Assembly: GCA_963819655.1 (NCBI GenBank)
Contig: CAWFXA010000002.1
Span: 64,001-128,000, forward strand
Origin: an uncultured Chloroflexia bacterium
Lineage (GTDB): Bacteria; Chloroflexota; Limnocylindria; Limnocylindrales; CSP1-4
DNA length: 64,000 nt
Direction of reading: 5' to 3'
Positions 7,925 to 21,003 of this stretch are shown one piece after another. Each line of letters begins with the position of its first letter. Position 1 is the first letter of the stretch. The notes below the pieces were generated by a model. The model was not told where the DNA came from. It saw only the letters and a list, made by a program, of their open reading frames with translations, and did not search any database. Position numbers and translations under genes: made by a program.

Positions 7925-9121
7925 ATGCGCGTTCGACGCCTCGGTCTGCGGCTCATCGGATTGGCCCTGGTCTGCGCTTGGGGACTCGCCGCGGCGCTGG
8001 TGCTGCTGGCGTATCGGCCGGGCGGCCCGCTCGACCTGATCGTCGGGATCACGATGTTGCTGCCGCTGGGGATCGCGGCCCTGGCGGTCCGCTGGCCGCC
8101 CCTCGCCCGCCGCGAGGTGTCCCACGCGCTGATCGTGGCGCTCGGGTTCGCGACACTGCTCGTCCTGCTGCCGTCCATCGGCGGCGTGCTGAACCAGCTG
8201 CAGGCGTACGGCTCGCAGACGCTGATGCCGTCGCCCGAGGCTGCGTACCCGTGGCTGCTCGCACTCATCGGGACCAGCCTGTTCGCGGGCTTCGGTCAGG
8301 CCCGCCGGGTGATGGGCGGCATGGCGCGCCGTCGCCAGCGGCTGCTCCTCGGCCTGGCCATCGCCACCTCCCTGACGCTCGTCGCCGGCACGGCGTTCGG
8401 CGGCGCCGCGATCGCCAACGAGCTGAGCCTGCGCGACACCGTCCGGCCGAGCATCGGCTCGCGCTTCGGACCGACCGACATCGGCGCCGACGTGGAGCCG
8501 CCATCGTGCGACGGCGCGGTCGTGGCGGGCTCGACGGCGCGCCTTGCGGCACGGTTCGTGGGCTCGATCGACGGACGGCAGAGCGGGACGGTCGATCTCG
8601 TCGGTCACCGGTCGCGGGCGGACTTCCGCTGGCTCGCGTACGTCGCCACCAACCGTGAGCTGGGCCAGTACGGCCAAGCCCGGCGCGGCGACGCCGGGTG
8701 GCTCCGCACGCCCGCCGCCGGCTGGGTGCCCACCCTGCTGACGGTCGTCCGGGACTCGACGCTCGACCTGCAGACAGTCGCCGTCGCGCTCACCGACGGC
8801 GCCCGAGCCACCGCCGAGGACTACGGCATCGAGGTCATCGAGCGGGCGCCGGCGCGGCGCTGCCGCGTGTCCGTCGACGGGTCGATCTTCCGGGCGATCT
8901 TTCCCCCTGTCGCGTGGCTCGTCGGCGACCACGATCTCGAGCGCTGGCGGGGCCAGCTCGATTACTGGGTCTTCCTCGACGGTGCACTCGGCCAGGTCGC
9001 GGGGTCGATCAACGGCGAGGCCAGCGGGATCGAGGAGGAAGCCATCCAGGGCAAGATCGAAGTGCTGCTGACCGCGACCGAGCGCGGCCGCGACGTCGTG
9101 ATCGCGGCGCCGGCGCCATGA
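7925..9121 (+). CDS. Membrane protein, about 5 TM helices plus an extracytoplasmic beta-rich domain
   Basis: Five hydrophobic segments then a soluble domain. TAGACT -10 box 7 nt before the ATG. Stop overlaps the WYL start (ATGA). Confidence 0.8.
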   Translation: MRVRRLGLRLIGLALVCAWGLAAALVLLAYRPGGPLDLIVGITMLLPLGIAALAVRWPPLARREVSHALIVALGFATLLVLLPSIGGVLNQLQAYGSQTLMPSPEAAYPWLLALIGTSLFAGFGQARRVMGGMARRRQRLLLGLAIATSLTLVAGTAFGGAAIANELSLRDTVRPSIGSRFGPTDIGADVEPPSCDGAVVAGSTARLAARFVGSIDGRQSGTVDLVGHRSRADFRWLAYVATNRELGQYGQARRGDAGWLRTPAAGWVPTLLTVVRDSTLDLQTVAVALTDGARATAEDYGIEVIERAPARRCRVSVDGSIFRAIFPPVAWLVGDHDLERWRGQLDYWVFLDGALGQVAGSINGEASGIEEEAIQGKIEVLLTATERGRDVVIAAPAP

Positions 9122-10142
9122 CGTTCGACGCGGACGAGCGGCCGTTCGGCAAGCGCGACCGCCTCGCCCGGATGCTGCGCGTCGTCGCGGTGCTGCGCGG
9201 CCACCCCGACGGCATCCGACCCGCCGAGATCGCCCGCCGCACCGGAGTCGCGACGCGGACCGTCTACCGCGACCTGCGCGCGCTCGAGACCGAAGTGGGC
9301 GTCGCGGTCTGGTCGGAGGACGGGCTGTGGGGTGTCGTCGGCGAGGAGTTCCTGCCACCGCTCAAGCTGACCCTCGACGAGGCGATGGCCGTCGTGCTGT
9401 CGGCTCGCCTGATGGTCCGCTACGCCGACAAGTACGACCCGGACCTCGCCGCGGCGTTCGAGAAGCTCGAAGAAGTGCTGCCGCGGCCGCTCGCGGAGCA
9501 CGTCGAGCGGACTCTTGACGTCCTCGCCCAGCATCCGCGCGACGCCGCGTTCAGCGAGCACGTCCATCGGTTGACCCGGGCCTGGGCGGAGCGGCGGGTC
9601 GTGACGCTCGAGTACGAGCCGGCGCGCTACGGCCCCGATGCCGCCGCCCGGCGTGCGGTCGTCCGTCCGTACCTGATCGAGCCATCGCTCCAGACCCACG
9701 CCCTCTACCTGATCGGCTGGGACGAGACCCGCGACGCGCTGCGGACCTTCAAGATCGAGCGGATCAGGGATGTCGCGCTGACGCCGCGGACGTTCGACAT
9801 GCCGGAGGGCGACGGCGTCGAGGGAGCGCTGCGCCGGGCCTGGGACATCATCGCGGATCAGCCGCCGACAGAGATCGTTCTGCGCTTCGCACCGTCTGTC
9901 GCGACGCGTGTCCAGGAGGCGACGTGGCATCCGACCCAGCGGGTCGAGGTCGCGGCTGACGGCTCGCTGACCTGGCGGGCGACGGTCGCCGGGACGATCG
10001 AGATCCGGCTCTGGATCCTGTCGTGGGGCGACGATGTGGAGGTACTGGAGCCCGACGCTCTGCGATTTGACGTTGCCTCGACGCACCGTCGTGCCGGGGA
10101 GCGATACGGCTCGGACGGACAAGGGCTGGACGACTGGGTTAG
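9118..10142 (+). CDS. HTH-WYL-WCX transcriptional regulator (PafB/PafC/DriD-like). In-frame stop is missing, so the end is approximate.
   Basis: wHTH EIARRTGVATRTVYRDLRALE, WYL region VRPY...LYLIGWD...RTFKIERI, WCX region WILSWGDDVEVLEP. Similarity ends near 10110, and TAG codons lie at 10140 and 10145 in the other frames. Confidence 0.88.
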
Positions 10143-13483: not shown

Positions 13484-14273
13484 ATGACTGACACCTCGCG
13501 ACCACCGATGGACGCTCCGGCATCCGCCTACGACCGGCGGTGGATCGCCACGCACCTCGCCGAGGAGCGCCAGGAAAGCTCCCTCCTCGGTGAGATCCGC
13601 GAGGTGGTGTTCGGCCTGCAGGACGGCCTGGTCTCGACGCTGGCCGTGGTGGCCACCGTCGCCGGCGCGTCGGGGCAGGCCTTTCCGGTCATCGTCGCCG
13701 GTATCGCCAGCGGCCTGGCCGGCGTGTTCTCGATGGCGGCCGGCGAGTACATCGGCAGCAAGAGCCAGCGTGAGATCTTCGACGCCCAGATCCACGAGGA
13801 GCGCCACGAGGTCGAGGAGCGGCCCGGTGAGGCCGAGGCCGAGGTAGCGTTCATGCTCACCGAGGAGGGCCTCGAGCGAGGAGGAGGCGGCTCGGATCGC
13901 CGCTCTGATGGCAAGCCATCCCGAGGTCCTCCTGCGCACGATGGTGACGCGCGAGCTCGGCATCCAGGTCGACGAGCATGGCGGCAGCGTCCTCCGTGGG
14001 GCGCTGTTCATGGGAGCGGCGTTCGGCCTGGGCGCGCTGGTCCCGATCCTGCCCTTCCTGCTCCTCCCGATCGGCATGGCGATCCCGACCGCAGTGGTCG
14101 CCACAGGGCTTGTCCTGTTCGGCATCGGCGTCGTGAAGAGTCGCTGGACTCATCGCTCCGCGTTGTCGTCCGGTCTCGAGGTCCTGATGCTGGCGGCCGT
14201 GGCCGGCATCGCCGGCTACCTCTTCGGGACCGTGCTGCCGCAGCTGCTCGGAGTCGCCGGGATCGCGGCGTAG
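13484..14273 (+). CDS. VIT1/CCC1 family iron/manganese exporter (frame break near 13880)
   Basis: IREVVFGLQDGLVSTL, AGVFSMAAGEYIG. C-terminal TM half lies in ORF 13908-14273. Confidence 0.88.
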
Positions 14274-14275
14274 CC

Positions 14276-16973
14276 CTAGCCGACCTTCGCGCCGCCGGGC
14301 GGTGCCTGCCGGATCGCCGCGAGCACCCGATCCGGCGTCGCAGGCACGACATCGATCCGGACGCCGATCGCGTCGCGGATCGCGCCGAGGATCGCCGGTG
14401 CGGTCGGGATCAACGCGGGCTCGCCGACGCCCTTCGCGCCATACGGTCCGGTCGGCTCGGCGTCCTCGATGAGGTGGCACTCGATCGGCGGTACGTCGCC
14501 GATGGTCGGGATCAGGTAGTCGTGGAGGTTGTCGGTCCGGCCGGCGTGGTACTCCTCCATGAGCGCGAAGCCGAGACCCTGCGCGATCCCACCGTGGATC
14601 TGCCCCTCGACCAGCATCGGGTTGATCGCCCGCCCGACGTCGTGCGCCGCCACGATCCGGCGGACGACGGTCGTCCCGAGCTCGATATCGACGTCGACGA
14701 CCGCGATCTGGGCGCCGAACCCGTACGTCTCGTACGGGATGCCCTGTCCGTCGGCATCGAGTGGCGTCGTCCGCGGGTCGTAGGTGCCGGTGCCGAGGAG
14801 GATGCACCCCTCGACATCGACCGGCAGCGCGGAGAGGTCCGGCCCGGCCATCTCGATCCGGCGCAGCAGGTCCGCGGCGGCGAGCTTCGTCGCGTTGCCC
14901 GACACGAACGTCTGGCGGGATGCTGACGTCTTGCCTGCGTCGGCGGTCCGGTCGGTGTCGCCGGCGACGAGATCGATGGAGGCCACCGGCGTCTCGAGCG
15001 CATCCGCCGCGATCTGGGTGAGGATCGTGTTCGAGCCCTGCCCGATATCCTGCGCGCCGCTGAACAGGACGTACGACCCGTCGGGTCGCAGGCCGATCCG
15101 GATCGTCGACGGGTTGGTCAGCGACGTGTTGCCGATGCCGTACCACATCGCCCCGATGCCGATGCCCCGACGGATCGGGCTGCCGTCGGCGGCGGCGACC
15201 CGCGTTGTGGTGTCGGGCGTCCTCCGTCCCCTCGACCCAGGCCGGGCGCAGGGCCTCGAGGCAGGGCACCAGGCCTGCGCTTGCGGCGAGCACCTGGCCG
15301 GTCGCCGTCGTCGACCCGGCTCGCAGCGCGTTGCGGAGCCGGATCTCGAGGCGATCGATGCCGAGCTCCGCCGCGACGTCGTCGACGAGGGCCTCGCCGG
15401 CGATCGCGGACTGGGGCACGCCGAAACCGCGGAAGGCACCGCAGATCGGGCCGTTCGTATAGATCGCCCGGGTCGTCGCCCGAACGGCCGGCACCTCGTA
15501 CGGCCCCGAGGCATGCACCGGGACGCGGTTGGCGACCGTCGGGCCCCAGGAGGCGTACGCGCCGGTATCGAAATCGCCGTGGAACGTCAGGGCCGTGAAC
15601 CGGCCGTCGGCGTCCGCACCGAGCGACGCGGTCATGCGCGCCGGGTGCCGCTTGGTCGTCGAGCGCATCGACTCCGGGCGGGTGTAGACGCAGCGGACCG
15701 GGCGGTCGAGAAGCCACGCGGCCACCGCGATCATCGGTTGGAGGGACAGGTCGAGCTTCCCGCCGAAGCCGCCGCCGCAAGCGGTCGGGACCACGCGCAC
15801 CCGGTCCGGCGCGAGCCCGAGGATCAGCGCGATCTCGTCGCGGTCCATGTATGGCGTCTGGGTCGACGCAACGACCTCGATCCGGTTGCCGTCGCGTCGC
15901 GCATAACCGGCCTCCGGTTCGATGTAGGCATGCTCGAGGTGACCCGTCTGGAACGTCCCGGTCGCCACGATCGTGGAGGCGGCCAGCCCCGTGTCCACGT
16001 CTCCGCGCACGACCCGGCCGCTCGTCAGGACGTTGCTGGGAAACGCGTCGTGGAACTGGGTCGTGCCGGGGGCCGCGGCGACCGCCGGGTCGAGGATCGG
16101 CTCCAGCGGCACCCAGTCGATCGGGAGGTCGCCATCATCGATGCGCCCGATCGTCTCGGCGTCGCCGACCAGGGCCGCGATCGCCTCGCCGCGGAACCGG
16201 ACGTACCCGTCTGCGAGGACCGGCTGGTCCTTGCCTGTCGCATAGATCCCGTAGAGGTTCTGGCCGGGCACGTCCCCGGCCACGAGCACCCGCACGAGCC
16301 CAGGGTTGGCGGCATGAAGCGGCGCGAGGTCGCCGATCGTGAAGCGCGCGTGGGCATGGGGCGACCGAACCGCCCGCAGATGTAGTACATCGATGGGCGC
16401 GCGATCCGCGCCGAAGGACGTCGTGCCGGTGACCTGGTCGATCCCGTCGACGCGGGCGATCCGCGCCCCGACCGCGGCACCCGTCGGCACCGGCGGGGTG
16501 TCCTCGTTCGCGCCCGCGTCGACCGCGGCCTCGACGATCTTGCGATAGCCGGTGCAGCGGCACAGGACGCCGCCGAGCGCATCCATGACCTCGGTCTCGG
16601 TCGGGTGCGCCCGCGTCGCGAGGAGGGCATCGGCGGCCATCAGCATGCCCGGCGTGCAGATCCCGCATTGCGCCGCGCCGGTCCGCAGGAACGCGGCCTG
16701 GATCGGGCGCAAGGAGTCGCCGGAGGCGAGGCCCTCGACGGTGTCGACCGCGCGGCCGTCCAGCTGACCGAGCGGGACGAGACAGGCGCACACGGGGTCG
16801 CCGTCCAGGCGAACCGTGCAGGCGCCGCAATCGCCGGCATCACAGCCGACCTTCGTGCCGGTCAGAGCAAGGTCGTCGCGCAGGACTTCGCTGAGCCGCC
16901 GCATCGGGTCGCCCTCGACCGCGACATCCTGGCCGTTGACCCTGAAGGTCGTCGGTCGGGTCGGCACGTCCAT
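14276..16973 (-). CDS. Molybdenum hydroxylase, fused 2x[2Fe-2S] and molybdopterin-binding subunit, nicotinate dehydrogenase (NdhS-L-M)-like (frame break near 15200)
   Basis: GTKVGCDAGDCGACTV, QCGICTPG, LCRCTGY, GGGFGGK, GAFRGFGVPQ, RGIGIGAMWYGIGNT (NdhM-like), DIGQG, GAKGVGEP. Confidence 0.9.
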
Positions 16974-17809
16974 CACGCGAGCACCTGCGCGACCGCGCGC
17001 CGCACCAGGGTCAGCGCAGCGTCGCGTCGGTACGCCGCCGTGGCGCGCACGTCGTCGATCGGGCTGAGGTCGGCCAGATCGGCCGCCGTGATCTCGTCGG
17101 CGAGCGCCGCCGCCGGCATCTGTCCCACCAGTCGTACCTCGGCCGCACCGACCCGCTGCGGCACTTCGGAGCACGCGCCCACCACGATCCGTGCCCTCGA
17201 GATCGCACCGTCGCCGCCTCGCTCCACCACGACCGCCACCATCGCGATCGAGATCACGAGATACGCGCGCGACCCGAGCTTGAGGAACGCCGACCGGGCC
17301 GAAGCCGCAGGGCGTGGCACGAGGACTGCCGTGACCAGTTCGTCCCGCCGCAGGGTCGTCCGGCGATTGCCGACCACGAACGCGCCGACCGGCACTTCCC
17401 GCCGGCCCGCGGCCGAGACCAGCTCGACGCGTGCGTCGAGCGCCATGAGGTTCGGCAGCCCGTCGGCGGCAGGCGAGGCGTTGCACAGGTTCCCGGCGAC
17501 CGTGCCACGGTGCTGGATCTGGACGCCACCCACGGCGCGCGCCGCCGCCTTCAGACCATCGAAGGCGGGCGGCAGGTCGGCACGGATCACGTCGGTCCAC
17601 GTCGCGAGCGCGGGGATCCGGATCACATCGTCGGTAGCGACGATGGCCCGCAGCTCGGGCAACGCCGTCACGTCCAGGATGTCGTCGCCGACCCACCGTC
17701 CGACCCGAGCCGGATAGATGTCGGTGCCACCGGCGAGCATCGTCCGCGGACGCTCGGCCAGCGCCGCCAGCGCATCCTCAAGGCTGTTCGGTCGCAGGTA
17801 GCTGGCCAT
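16973..17809 (-). CDS. Molybdenum hydroxylase FAD-binding subunit (NdhF/CoxM-like)
   Basis: YLRPNSLEDAL, LAGGTD, VGGVQIQHRGTVAGNLCNASPAAD, SPIDDVRATAAYRR. Confidence 0.93.
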   Translation of the reverse strand: MASYLRPNSLEDALAALAERPRTMLAGGTDIYPARVGRWVGDDILDVTALPELRAIVATDDVIRIPALATWTDVIRADLPPAFDGLKAAARAVGGVQIQHRGTVAGNLCNASPAADGLPNLMALDARVELVSAAGRREVPVGAFVVGNRRTTLRRDELVTAVLVPRPAASARSAFLKLGSRAYLVISIAMVAVVVERGGDGAISRARIVVGACSEVPQRVGAAEVRLVGQMPAAALADEITAADLADLSPIDDVRATAAYRRDAALTLVRRAVAQVLA

Positions 17810-17817
17810 CGGACCGG

Positions 17818-18801
17818 TCAGTCGCGGACGAGCGGTAGCACGTCGGAGGCGATCCGCTCGAGGGCGTCCGGGCTCCAGTCGAGCGGGTTGAGGATGACGT
17901 GCTCCACGCCACCGAGCGCCTCGATCTTGCCGCGGATCCGCTCAGCCAGGGCGTCGGCCTCGCCGAGGAGATAGAACTCCTGCCAGTAGTCGAGATCCAT
18001 GCCGGAGAAGGTGCGGAACTTGGCTGCGGCACTGTCCGGCGATTCGCCCGGCCCGAGGACGTGGATGAAGTTCGAGTAGACCTTGGTCATCTGGTCGGGG
18101 TTCCGCCCGAAGCCCGCCATCTCCTCCTGGATGATCGCCCAGTCGCCGGCCACCATGTCCGCGGTCGCCGACGAGTGCGGCACCCACGTCGATGCGTACT
18201 TGGCGATGCGGCGCAGCACGGGGCGGATGGTGTCGACCTGTTGGCCGTAGATCTTCTCGGACGGCTGCGTGCCACCGCCGATCCAGATCGGTGGATGAGG
18301 CCGCTGGACCGGCTTGGGCTCGATCGTCAGGTCAGCGAACCGATAGAACTGGCCCTCGTACGTGACGTTGTCGCCGGCCCACAGCGCGGTGATCGCTTCG
18401 AGCATCTCGTTCATGCGGCGGCCGCGTTCACGGAACGGGATGCGCAGCGCCGCGAACTCCCCTTCGTGCCAACCGACGCCGACACCGAGGATCGAGCGGC
18501 CGCCGGACAGGACGTCGAGCGTCGCCCACTCCTTCGCGAACGCGACGGGGTCGCGGAACGGGAGAACCAGCACCAGGGTCCCGAGGCGCATCGTCCGGGT
18601 CACGCCGGCCAGTGCGGACAACAGCGAGATCGGCTCGAGCCAGGTCGTTCGATAGGCGGGCGGGGCGACGAGTAGATGGTCGATCAGGACCGCGCTTTCG
18701 AAGCCGAGGTCCTCCGCTCGTCGGAGATACGCACCCATGTCCAGGAGACTCGCCGTGTCGTCCCCGAGCGCGAAGCTCGGCAGCCGTAGGCCGAACCGCA
18801 T
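17818..18801 (-). CDS. LLM-class (luciferase-like) oxidoreductase, probably F420-dependent (Rv2161c-like)
   Basis: MRFGLRLP, AEDLGFES..IDH, LGTLVLVLPFRDP..AKEWATLDVLSGGR, PHPPIWIGG. Start overlaps the enamidase stop. Confidence 0.9.
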   Translation of the reverse strand: MRFGLRLPSFALGDDTASLLDMGAYLRRAEDLGFESAVLIDHLLVAPPAYRTTWLEPISLLSALAGVTRTMRLGTLVLVLPFRDPVAFAKEWATLDVLSGGRSILGVGVGWHEGEFAALRIPFRERGRRMNEMLEAITALWAGDNVTYEGQFYRFADLTIEPKPVQRPHPPIWIGGGTQPSEKIYGQQVDTIRPVLRRIAKYASTWVPHSSATADMVAGDWAIIQEEMAGFGRNPDQMTKVYSNFIHVLGPGESPDSAAAKFRTFSGMDLDYWQEFYLLGEADALAERIRGKIEALGGVEHVILNPLDWSPDALERIASDVLPLVRD

Positions 18802-19988
18802 CAGTGCCCGCCCGCGCGGACCGGGGGTCCGGTGACGACCTCGGCGATCCGCCCCGCCGGCGCCGTATTGCGACTGCGCCCGATCAGCGGCACGCCGTCG
18901 ACGATCACCATCGAGACGCCGGGGAGGTCCCCGGTCGCGAGCGCCTCGAGGGCCGTCGAGCCGACGCTGCCGATGGGCGCATCCACGATGCACAGGTCGG
19001 CGACCCGACCAGGGGCGATGACACCGATATCCAGACCGTGGACGCGCGCCGTATTGCCGGTCGCAAGGGCGACGACGGTCTCTGGCGGGACGCCACCGAT
19101 CGACGCGAGATGGGCCATCAGCCGGAGGATGCCAAGCGGCACGACGCCCGTCCCCGACGGGGCATCGTTGCCGAGGATGACGCGGGCCAAGGCACCGGCA
19201 TCCGAGGCCTTGCGCAACGCCACCAGCGCGGTCCGGCCGTTCCCGCAGTGCACGAGCTCGAGCGCGATGCCGGTGTCGGCTGCGACGAGGCGATCGATGT
19301 CGGCCTCCGGGAGCGATGTCGTGCCGCCGTTGATGTGGCCGGCGATGTGAGGGTTCGCCTCGAGGACGGCATCCGCCCCGATCGCCCCCGACCCGGGTAG
19401 CGACGGGCCGCCGGTGTGGTAGGTCGACACCATGCCATGGGCGCGGCCCCACGCGACCATCGGGGCTGCGTCGGCGCCGGTCTTGACCGACCCGAGCCCG
19501 ATCTCGCCGATGAGCCGCACGCCGCCAGCGGCCATCTCGGCAAAGTCTGCCTCGACCAGTCCCTGCTCGAGGATCGGAGCGCCCGCCCGCACCTTGACCC
19601 CACCGGGGCGGAACGTCGCATACGCGCGAGCGATCGCGATGGCCAGTGACTTGAGCCCGACGATGTCCTTGGGACGGCCTGGCACGTGCGGTTCGCCGGC
19701 CGAGATCATCGTCGTGACCCCGCCGTGGAGCGACGACTCGATGAAGTCGACGGTCCGCTGGCGGGGCGTGAAGTCACCCACGACCGGGTGGGCGTGCGAG
19801 TCGATGAGGCCGGGGATGACGGTCGTCCCTTTCGCGTCGATGACGACGTCCGCGTCGCCCCGATCACCCACGCCATAGCCGACGGCATCGATCAGGCCGT
19901 CGACGATCGAGATCGAGTCGCCATCGATGAGCGGCGCGTCGATGTCGCCCGAGACGATCCGGCCGATGCCGGTGATCAGCGTCTGCAC
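18801..19988 (-). CDS. ena: Enamidase (amidohydrolase of nicotinate catabolism)
   Basis: Matches my recollection of Eubacterium barkeri enamidase along its length: IVSGDI, PGLIDSHAH, PRQRTVDFIESSLHGGVTTMISAG, GRPKD, HTGG, HINGG, GNDAPSGTG, SRNT. Confidence 0.88.
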   Translation of the reverse strand: MQTLITGIGRIVSGDIDAPLIDGDSISIVDGLIDAVGYGVGDRGDADVVIDAKGTTVIPGLIDSHAHPVVGDFTPRQRTVDFIESSLHGGVTTMISAGEPHVPGRPKDIVGLKSLAIAIARAYATFRPGGVKVRAGAPILEQGLVEADFAEMAAGGVRLIGEIGLGSVKTGADAAPMVAWGRAHGMVSTYHTGGPSLPGSGAIGADAVLEANPHIAGHINGGTTSLPEADIDRLVAADTGIALELVHCGNGRTALVALRKASDAGALARVILGNDAPSGTGVVPLGILRLMAHLASIGGVPPETVVALATGNTARVHGLDIGVIAPGRVADLCIVDAPIGSVGSTALEALATGDLPGVSMVIVDGVPLIGRSRNTAPAGRIAEVVTGPPVRAGGH

Positions 19989-19998
19989 AACGGGCGCC

Positions 19999-20571
19999 TC
20001 AGTGCAGGCCGTCCTCGCCGACGGCGTCCGCAGCGGCGAGTCCGCCGATCCGCGCATGCGGCCGGCCCGCGTTCGTCACGGCCAGGGCCAGCAACAGCTC
20101 GTCGGCGCCGGGCGCATCGGGGACCGAGATCGTGACCGCGTCGAAATGCGAGCGGATCAGCATCGCCTTGATGTGGTGCACCGGGATGTCGAGCGTGGCG
20201 CCCATCGCGGCCCGCTTCTTGACCGACGGGAGGATCGACACGCCGCTAGTGCGCGTGCGGGTCGGCTGCCCGAACTTCGGATGCAGGACGGCCGCCACGT
20301 GCTCGAGCTCCCCGTGCTCGCCGACGATGCCGCCCTTGCCATACGCCTCGACCGGCTCACCAAGGGCCTCCTGGCAGCGTCGCGTCAGCTCATCGCCAAG
20401 GAACTCCCCGAAGTCGATGAGCTCGGCAAGGTCGTCGGACCAGGTACCCGCGTAGGGGTTGGAGCAGACGACCGCCACGGCGACCCGGCGGAGCGGACGT
20501 TCGAGCTCACGCTCACCGTCGGACACGATCTCGTCGCGGAACGTCGCCCACTTGCGGATCTTGATCGTCAC
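19999..20571 (-). CDS. Amino acid synthesis family protein (AA_synth)
   Basis: IRKW..DEI, AVAVVCSNPYAG, EAYGKGGIVGEHGELEH, RSHFDAVTISVPDAPGADE. GGAG RBS before GTG 20571. Confidence 0.87.
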   Translation of the reverse strand: MTIKIRKWATFRDEIVSDGERELERPLRRVAVAVVCSNPYAGTWSDDLAELIDFGEFLGDELTRRCQEALGEPVEAYGKGGIVGEHGELEHVAAVLHPKFGQPTRTRTSGVSILPSVKKRAAMGATLDIPVHHIKAMLIRSHFDAVTISVPDAPGADELLLALAVTNAGRPHARIGGLAAADAVGEDGLH

Positions 20572-20644
20572 GGTGTCTCCTTCGACCGTCCTCGCCTCGT
20601 GACCGAAGTATGCCGTGGGACGGGTGACGCCTCCTGGACGTCCG

Positions 20645-21003
20645 TCAGGCATCACGCCAGTCGCACCAGGCCCGGACGATCGACTCGAGCTCAGGGCGAG
20701 CCGTCTCGGCCTCCGCCATGTCGGCGACCTTGATGACGCGCGACGTGTCACCGCTCCCTCGAGGCGCGGATGCGTGCCCGGGATCTTCGCTCCGAGGTGG
20801 AACATGAGGCTCGCATGCTGCCGGCTCTTCGGGTAGAAGCTGGCGATGTTGCCCTTGTACGTGAACGTCGGCGCCTGCCATTTGATGCACTCGTCGACCC
20901 GCGGATCGGCGGCCAGCACGATCTCCCGGACTCGCTGGACGACGTCCTTCATCGGGTTGTCGTACCGCTCGAACCAGGCGTCCACGTCGGGCCGTCTCGG
21001 CAT
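20645..21003 (-). CDS. DUF1801 (YdhG-like) protein (frame break near 20757)
   Basis: VREIVLAADPRVDECIKWQAPTF...LMFHLGA, continuing GSGDTSRVIKV...IVRAWCD in the adjacent frame. Confidence 0.8.

Follow-up and report, generated by a model that had tools for sequence, protein, structure and literature searches.

In Eubacterium barkeri, nicotinate dehydrogenase (Ndh) forms 6-hydroxynicotinate, the ferredoxin-dependent reductase Hnr converts it to 1,4,5,6-tetrahydro-6-oxonicotinate, and an enamidase (Ena) opens the ring. The middle reaction is a two-electron, ene-type reduction, and ring reduction in reductive nicotinate catabolism is known only from Hnr, an oxygen-sensitive, ferredoxin-dependent iron–sulphur (FeS) flavoprotein. 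Here we describe a locus for which the same first three chemical steps are predicted, with an unrelated enzyme in place of Hnr. It lies in a stretch of 64,000 nucleotides (hereafter the window; G000:C2:64001-128000) from a genome of 3.49 Mb in 3 contigs, 91% complete and with ~70% G+C. The locus consists of five tightly packed minus-strand genes at 14276-20571, encoding an AA_synth protein, an enamidase, an oxidoreductase of the luciferase-like monooxygenase (LLM) class, the flavin adenine dinucleotide (FAD) subunit of a molybdenum (Mo) hydroxylase and a fused FeS/Mo subunit (Table 1). The closest relatives of its enamidase and LLM are labelled Chloroflexota or Candidatus Limnocylindrales. Compared with the E. 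barkeri cluster (ndhFSLM, hnr, ena; PDB 3HRD and 2VUN), the window has the LLM but neither Hnr nor its ApbE-like partner, and NdhS, NdhL and NdhM, three genes in E. barkeri, are one fused gene. Unlike in the E. barkeri-type cluster, no B12 mutase, PrpF, dimethylmalate lyase or other downstream gene is found near the operon.

A second described system is the aerobic 'hybrid' cluster of Azorhizobium caulinodans and Bradyrhizobiaceae SG-6C, which, according to excerpts of the report, combines the first three steps with conserved unknown proteins (PMC3511419). Its host is aerobic, like that of the window, and the analogous loci L031, L034 and L054 carry Ena and AA_synth. Moreover, many loci with Hnr, L054 among them, have the same fused FeS-Mo and FAD subunits as the window. 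However, this type keeps an Hnr homologue together with an ApbE-like gene, the homologue being 42% identical to E. barkeri Hnr (PMC3511419, in excerpt) and 40-44% identical to the Sedimentibacter protein used here as a query. It usually has two AA_synth genes and often a MarR gene and an ATP-binding cassette (ABC) transporter, whereas the window type has the LLM and a single AA_synth.

The explanation that we favour is that the LLM would have displaced Hnr and its ApbE-like partner in Limnocylindria-type Chloroflexota and Rokubacteria-like bacteria. The LLM is probably the 6-hydroxynicotinate ring reductase of the operon, with its substrate and reaction direction deduced from genomic context. 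A more specific proposal, in which the LLM would be an F420H2-dependent, oxygen-tolerant and ferredoxin-independent 6-hydroxynicotinate (2-pyridone) ene-reductase, and the first TIGR03619-type enzyme with a substrate, is tentative, and we give it somewhat less than an even chance. A non-orthologous reductase in place of Hnr had already been suggested in a first-pass annotation made from the letters of the window, and the complementary distribution and synteny described below support this suggestion on comparative grounds. The novelty lies in a non-orthologous enzyme at one step of an otherwise known nicotinate pathway. No LLM or F420 enzyme was found described for the 6-hydroxynicotinate step in the open-access and bioRxiv literature, subscription journals and supplements being outside the scope of that search.

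The assignment to nicotinate is based on homology. The amidohydrolase of the operon matches E. barkeri enamidase 2VUN over residues 3-385 of 386 (phmmer E 1.2e-128; next PDB match E 5.7e-06) and is ~57% identical to this characterised enzyme over its full length, which makes it as close as the Enas of Hnr-type clusters (50-58%). Residues H66, H68, H192, H219 and D276, which we take from superfamily knowledge to be the amidohydrolase metal ligands, are invariant in an alignment of 15 sequences at 39-85% identity. By homology the protein is an enamidase orthologue (EC 3.5.2.18), predicted to hydrolyse 1,4,5,6-tetrahydro-6-oxonicotinate to 2-formylglutarate and NH3. As to the Mo enzyme, the FAD, 2x[2Fe-2S] and molybdopterin domains of nicotinate dehydrogenase are all present according to Pfam. 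The C-terminal Mo part has NdhM (3HRD) as its best solved match (E 2.5e-66; next 2.3e-39), and the MWYGIGNT stretch, earlier noted as an NdhM motif, indeed lines up with the one that E. barkeri NdhM (3HRD_B) has at its N-terminus. The FeS part matches NdhS (E 1.5e-36) and the N-terminal Mo part matches NdhL (E 8.4e-82), NdhL being second by E-value to Desulfovibrio gigas aldehyde oxidoreductase, whose match also spans the FeS part. The best NCBIfam match, 'selenium-dependent xanthine dehydrogenase', scores 435.7 bits, below the cut-off of 830. By homology, the enzyme is thus closest to NdhL/NdhM/NdhS, and C6-hydroxylation of nicotinate is predicted because the accompanying Ena is so similar to a characterised enamidase and NdhM is the best solved match.

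The LLM itself scores 207.1 bits on TIGR03619, above the curated cut-off of 166.9, and its top NCBIfam models are all F420-type LLM families (TIGR03619, then TIGR03560 and TIGR03621). To our knowledge, no member of TIGR03619 (Rv2161c-type) has an assigned substrate, and public records of the LLM orthologues bear only the generic TIGR03619 name. Although the window clade falls within this family by score, its fixed association with enamidase sets it apart. The genome holds 16 LLM paralogues, and this association is unique to the LLM of the operon, the other 15 being without it. A search of PDB sequences gave distant matches only (best E 3.5e-21). An AlphaFold2 model (pLDDT 87.5) has the TIM-barrel LLM fold. 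The LLM (PF00296) is thus unrelated to the FeS-flavoprotein Hnr, which combines an N-terminal 2x[4Fe-4S] domain with a catalytic part of ~450 residues.

The five-gene arrangement is far beyond chance, as it recurs in congeners, in further genomes and in most of 80 metagenome loci. The order AA_synth-Ena-LLM-FAD-FeSMo is found in all six ena-bearing congeners as well as in L014 and L016; L015 has it with a different Mo enzyme. Two surveys addressed the neighbourhoods more broadly. One was centred on enamidase, whose relatives number in thousands, and covered 80 genome-contig loci found with an alignment of 15 Ena sequences (tblastn E ≤ 1e-8). An LLM orthologue is present in three of them (L014, L015 and L016), Hnr and/or an ApbE-like gene in 48 (both in 44), and neither within the fetched stretch in 29; for eight of these last the genome was searched, and five have Hnr elsewhere. 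The other survey was centred on the LLM and covered 80 metagenome loci, in 79 of which the LLM relative is 57-90% identical and in one, L168, 44%. Where at least 300 bp upstream of the LLM are available (64 loci), Ena or AA_synth is found there in 59, and where at least 400 bp downstream are available (60 loci), a xanthine dehydrogenase-family subunit is found there in 56; the exceptions are more distant members (57-77% identity). Taken together, LLM orthologues (57-91% identity) nearly always have Ena/AA_synth and a Mo hydroxylase as their neighbours. The mutual exclusivity of Hnr and LLM, which the first-pass annotation had suggested looking for around ena, held throughout: the two never occur together in the 80 Ena loci, and Hnr or an ApbE-like gene is present in none of the 80 LLM loci.

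Two layouts carry the LLM. Type A, as in the window, is AA_synth-Ena-LLM-FAD-FeSMo and belongs to Chloroflexota. Type B, Ena-AA_synth-LLM-Mo large subunit, belongs to Rokubacteria (L015:5800-19000; L135-L153); its Mo large subunit is a stand-alone protein of 789 aa, ~32% identical to that of the window, and in L015 the cluster is preceded by a branched-chain amino acid-type ABC transporter and a DUF169 gene.

Hnr is missing not only from the clusters. As a query standing in for E. barkeri Hnr we used a 505-aa protein with an N-terminal 2x[4Fe-4S] region from Sedimentibacter acidaminivorans, encoded in cluster L087, where genes for a B12 mutase, PrpF, MutL and a phosphoenolpyruvate (PEP)-mutase-family lyase are followed by the Hnr query, an ApbE-like gene, Ena and AA_synth. 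Relatives of the query are named '6-hydroxynicotinate reductase' (P0463, 65% identity) or 'hnr' (P0506, P0510) by their sources, and the identity of 43-44% between it and its Bradyrhizobium homologues fits the 42% given in the excerpted report for E. barkeri Hnr and the SG-6C protein (PMC3511419). In the window's genome, tblastn with the query produced ferredoxin-domain matches only (best E 5e-4), and tblastn with the ApbE-like protein produced no match. A profile (A2) built from 12 Hnr-like proteins and applied with thresholds of E ≤ 0.01 or E ≤ 1e-5 had no match in any of 14 LLM-type genomes, namely that of the window and 13 others (G007, G015, G019, G021, G023, G024, G041-G043, G192, G288, G342 and G436). 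In the window, and equally in the rest of its genome, hnr was therefore not found by profile or tblastn; its absence from the window had been noted before, and a copy elsewhere was what the profile search could have revealed. As a control, the same profile was run on 25 other enamidase genomes that had no part in building it and matched 22 of them (the misses are G048, G062 and G063), or 21 of 24 if the unpublished G050 is left out. None of these 25 genomes has an LLM orthologue, their best matches being 34-44% identical and mostly partial.

The composition of the clusters tells the same story. All-against-all clustering of open reading frames (ORFs) was too noisy for the Hnr set (shadow ORFs, single linkage), and reference-based conservation profiles of 40 Hnr-type and 21 LLM-type loci were used instead. 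Ena is conserved in 39 of the 39 other Hnr-type loci and in 21 of the 21 LLM-type loci, AA_synth in 39/39 and 20-21/21, the fused FeS-Mo subunit in 27/39 and 21/21, and the FAD subunit in 24/39 and 16/21. On the other side stand Hnr (39/39 against 0/21), the ApbE-like gene (35-39/39, depending on the reference, against 0/21) and a MarR gene (18/39 against 0/21). AA_synth is duplicated in tandem in 25 of the 40 Hnr-type loci, while the remaining 15 have a single copy, as does each of the 21 LLM-type loci. MarR and the second AA_synth copy aside, the conserved sets differ by Hnr plus the ApbE-like gene versus the LLM, and this difference is the core argument for non-orthologous displacement.

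Both solutions exist within one phylum. Among 401 genomes sampled from the phylum, an Ena-like gene (E ≤ 1e-60) is found in 21. The six whose Ena is at least 68% identical all have the LLM right next to it and lack Hnr, while in G253 (1.4 Mb, Ena 53% identical) Hnr adjoins Ena and there is no LLM; the other 14, with Ena-like proteins at 39-51% identity, have neither. The Hnr match in G253 (G253:C18:3290-6151) comes in two pieces ~1.4 kb apart inside one open frame of 978 aa, which may reflect an inserted domain.

A quick IQ-TREE phylogeny of 90 Ena rows shows how the two types are related; ten loci whose best high-scoring segment was shorter than 330 aa or ran across a stop were left out (L023, L026, L034, L035, L040, L041, L045, L052, L074 and L081). 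In this tree, 22 of the 23 LLM-associated Enas fall into adjacent groups, a 16-row clade (support 98, starred) and Rokubacteria-type groups, located between the Hnr clade of Firmicutes and Deltaproteobacteria and that of Proteobacteria and Acidobacteria. The outlier, L168, is on a long branch.

How the pathway might proceed can be outlined from these assignments. The FAD/FeS/Mo nicotinate dehydrogenase would hydroxylate nicotinate to 6-hydroxynicotinate; the LLM would reduce C4=C5 of the 2-pyridone ring to give 1,4,5,6-tetrahydro-6-oxonicotinate, most likely with F420H2 donating a hydride to C4 of the 2-pyridone tautomer and C5 then being protonated; the enamidase would open the ring to 2-formylglutarate and ammonia; and AA_synth would probably act on the product of the enamidase or together with it. 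LLM enzymes that depend on F420H2 are hydride transferases, and NpdI of picrate degraders provides a precedent for F420H2-dependent hydride transfer to an electron-poor ring. A precedent for flavin hydride transfer is HxnT, an Old Yellow Enzyme-type reductase of nicotinate catabolism in Aspergillus nidulans, as described in excerpts of PMC9304392. Both differ from the LLM in substrate and pathway position, and the likeness is one of described chemistry rather than of compared sequences. Since the overall conversion of nicotinate and H2O to tetrahydro-6-oxonicotinate involves no net redox change, the FAD subunit could conceivably pass reducing equivalents directly to the LLM cofactor. One may even speculate that the FAD subunit reduces F420 directly, closing a redox-neutral F420 loop in organisms that scavenge the FO headgroup.

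As to the cofactor, we moderately favour F420 over flavin mononucleotide (FMN). The first-pass annotation had considered F420H2 dependence probable and had pointed to the F420 biosynthesis genes as a check. On one hand, membership of TIGR03619 agrees with this idea, and so does a cofD-cofC-cofE operon in the genome (G000:C1:139200-141600, L174), in which all three genes score above their cut-offs and which is flanked by two TIGR03560 LLMs; cofE also matches in all nine other LLM-type genomes tested, seven times above the cut-off. On the other hand, the modelled fold does not discriminate F420 from FMN, and cofG and cofH, unlike cofC, cofD and cofE, were not found. F420 would then depend on FO uptake. 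In this genus, cofD-cofC-cofE and many F420-type LLMs are present but no cofH was found in any of 14 congeners, which points to a reliance on scavenged FO.

Several observations weigh against an F420-dependent LLM reductase. The FO synthase genes cofG/cofH were not found in the 91% complete genome of the window, and cofH was found neither in the 14 congeners nor in G041 and G043 (among G041-G043, it is present in G042 only). As a source of F420H2, neither Fno nor a bona fide Fgd was found in this genome, the best Fgd match reaching 206.8 bits versus a cut-off of 420. Since cofE also occurs in 10 of the 25 Hnr-type genomes, F420 capacity does not separate the cluster types. Foldseek with the LLM model retrieved FMN monooxygenases (SfnG, SsuD and RutA) alongside F420 enzymes (Mer and Fgd) at TM scores of 0.71-0.81. 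Further, the reductase role comes from comparison of genomes, and the clade is known from its genes alone. A count of LLM label changes on the Ena tree gives about three, two of them forced by starred branches, so that the complementarity traces to few evolutionary events and is no statistical proof. Beside the operon there is no transporter, regulator or downstream pathway gene, and the Mo gene is frameshifted in the present assembly. Finally, most substrates of characterised F420 LLMs are alcohols and carbonyls, which would be in keeping with a reaction downstream of ring opening.

The last point leads to the best placed of the other explanations, namely that the LLM is an F420-dependent aldehyde or alcohol oxidoreductase acting on 2-formylglutarate, either reducing it to 2-(hydroxymethyl)glutarate, the reaction of Hgd in E. 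barkeri, or oxidizing it, while the ring is reduced by an unlinked enzyme. Activity on alcohol or carbonyl groups is known from the F420-dependent LLMs Fgd, Adf and hydroxymycolate dehydrogenase, Fgd1 and Fgd2 are among the structural neighbours of the LLM, and no Hgd-like gene is present in the operon or its flanks. Nevertheless, we consider such a role unlikely. It would leave ring reduction without a candidate in the 14 Hnr-less genomes, and it does not account for the LLM occurring exactly where Hnr and the ApbE-like gene are missing and never otherwise. Moreover, nothing that would correspond to such a later step is conserved in the Hnr-type clusters of Proteobacteria and Acidobacteria.

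Still less likely is degradation of another N-heterocyclic acid, an isomeric or substituted pyridine carboxylate, whose hydroxylated ring would be reduced by the LLM and whose related lactam would be opened by Ena. The substrate of a Mo hydroxylase is not readable from its sequence, the type B clusters (L015 and relatives) carry the divergent Mo large subunit mentioned above, and a context of Ena-like and AA_synth genes without a Mo enzyme exists (L090 and L092). However, the Ena of the window is as close to the characterised enzyme as are the Enas of Hnr-type clusters, the C-terminal Mo part resembles NdhM much more closely than it does the next solved enzyme, and a similar cluster occurs in nicotinate-mineralising SG-6C and A. 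caulinodans, as excerpts of PMC3511419 have it. Oxidation of an intermediate by the LLM as an FMN-dependent two-component monooxygenase is very improbable, for although its top Foldseek and phmmer PDB matches include SfnG, RslO1, SsuD and RutA and FO synthase was not found in the genus, its best family matches are F420-type (TIGR03619 above cut-off, TIGR03560, TIGR03621), cofC/D/E are present, the operon has no flavin reductase gene, and no reductase would remain to supply the reduced ring that an enamidase orthologue needs as its substrate.

The frameshift in the Mo gene deserves closer inspection. The domains and the fusion of the FeS/Mo subunit were recognized correctly in the first-pass annotation, but its reading frame is not intact, a 1-nt frameshift having been overlooked: the frame changes near 15208-15224, exactly where NdhL and NdhM are separate in E. 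barkeri. A natural NdhL/NdhM split was considered as the cause and rejected, because the frame of L runs on without a stop, that of M lacks a start codon, and relatives keep a single frame. The gene is one frame in five of the six congeners (L008, L009, L010, L012 and L013), the sixth, L011, being full of frame changes, and in L036 its relative is a single ORF of 940 aa. Contigs from four public sequencing runs of three studies (X1-X4) are each one base short at 15201/15202; these runs contain relatives, mostly 90-95% alike, and were used solely for this indel, as no run shares more than 0.23 of sampled words with the window (RNA runs at most 0.07). The alignment with L009 has the same gap, within a CCC run. 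The VIT1/CCC1-like gene next to the operon is also split, occupying two frames in the window and one in L008 and L009. In-frame relatives, run contigs and this second split indicate an assembly prone to indels, and the Mo gene is probably intact. We accordingly take the operon as intact and the frameshift as probably an assembly error, a real recent mutation being possible. In a DUF1801-like ORF upstream of AA_synth, the coding signal fades halfway and continues in the AA_synth frame; this break and that of the VIT1/CCC1-like gene are further signs of assembly indel errors.

If the LLM indeed reduces 6-hydroxynicotinate, the reaction would be of a type new to F420/LLM enzymes, 6-hydroxynicotinate would be the first substrate assigned within the large TIGR03619 family, and biocatalysis would gain a simple pyridone/ene reductase of one subunit. 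The 'anaerobic' reductive nicotinate pathway could then operate in aerobic soil Chloroflexota and Rokubacteria. The finding would bear on the turnover of vitamin B3 and pyridines by widespread uncultured Chloroflexota, as the clade is abundant in soil and sediment metagenomes, where it accounts for at least 120 clusters (at 90% identity) of no less than 78% identity. In addition, the DUF1185/AA_synth and ApbE-like proteins can be tied to the nicotinate pathway.

Table 1. Positions in the window of the operon genes and of other features mentioned in the text.
Feature	Position	Strand	Basis
AA_synth / DUF1185 protein, 190 aa	19999-20571	-	PF06684, E 5.5e-63
Enamidase orthologue, 395 aa	18801-19988 (or to 19991)	-	PF01979/PF07969; phmmer match to 2VUN
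LLM-class oxidoreductase, 327 aa	17818-18801	-	PF00296, E 5e-49; TIGR03619 'F420_Rv2161c'
FAD-binding Mo-hydroxylase subunit, 278 aa, NdhF/CoxM-like	16973-17809	-	PF00941, E 1.3e-37; PF03450, E 2.1e-16
Fused 2x[2Fe-2S] + molybdopterin subunit (NdhS-NdhL-NdhM), two frames in assembly	14276-16973	-	PF00111, PF01799, PF01315, PF02738 (N-part); PF20256 (C-part)
1-nt insertion site shifting the FeS/Mo frame, CCC run on + strand	15199-15202		Run contigs and L009 alignment
VIT1/CCC1-like gene	13484-14273	+	
DUF1801-like ORF	~20572-21003	-	
MerR-HTH/GAFx3/GGDEF protein, 977 aa	930-3863	+	
WYL/PafC-like regulator	9100-10020	+	

The coordinates and domains of the five genes agree with the minus-strand operon first proposed, including its two stop/start overlaps: Ena and LLM, as well as FAD and Mo subunits, overlap in TGATG, with the common base at 18801 and 16973, respectively. 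The remaining two junctions are gaps of 7-10 nt. Around the operon, the window encodes a GAF-GGDEF regulator, a polar amino-acid ABC transporter, a WYL/PafC-like regulator, an HD protein, an XRE regulator, an SRPBCC protein and an alpha/beta hydrolase; downstream nicotinate genes were not found among these neighbours. In relatives, neither the MerR-HTH/GAFx3/GGDEF protein nor the WYL/PafC-like regulator is linked to the operon.

Two companion proteins recur with the enamidase. AA_synth matches the 'uncharacterized protein' PDB 2QTP (E 1.7e-49) and, according to excerpts of PMC2954203, has a chorismate-mutase-like fold. It is present in 57 of the 80 enamidase loci and in all cluster types, from Firmicutes, Proteobacteria and Acidobacteria to Chloroflexota and Rokubacteria. 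Because it accompanies Ena in all of them, it may act on the enamine or on the 2-formylglutarate product. The ApbE-like protein of ~270 aa (L087:6871-7707) has matches below cut-off both in Pfam (E 1e-4) and to a PRK04334-type NCBIfam model (212 bits). Its gene accompanies Hnr in 44 loci, almost always 3' of it, and is absent along with Hnr from LLM-type clusters; the protein could be a flavin-attachment or maturation partner of Hnr. A third context of Ena-like and AA_synth genes (L090:7700-12500 and L092:7900-11950) has no Mo hydroxylase, Hnr or LLM, and Hnr and LLM are absent from the host genomes as well. It includes an isochorismatase-family hydrolase, an RraA-like protein, an alcohol or short-chain dehydrogenase (ADH/SDR) and an ABC transporter, and is possibly a pathway for another lactam.

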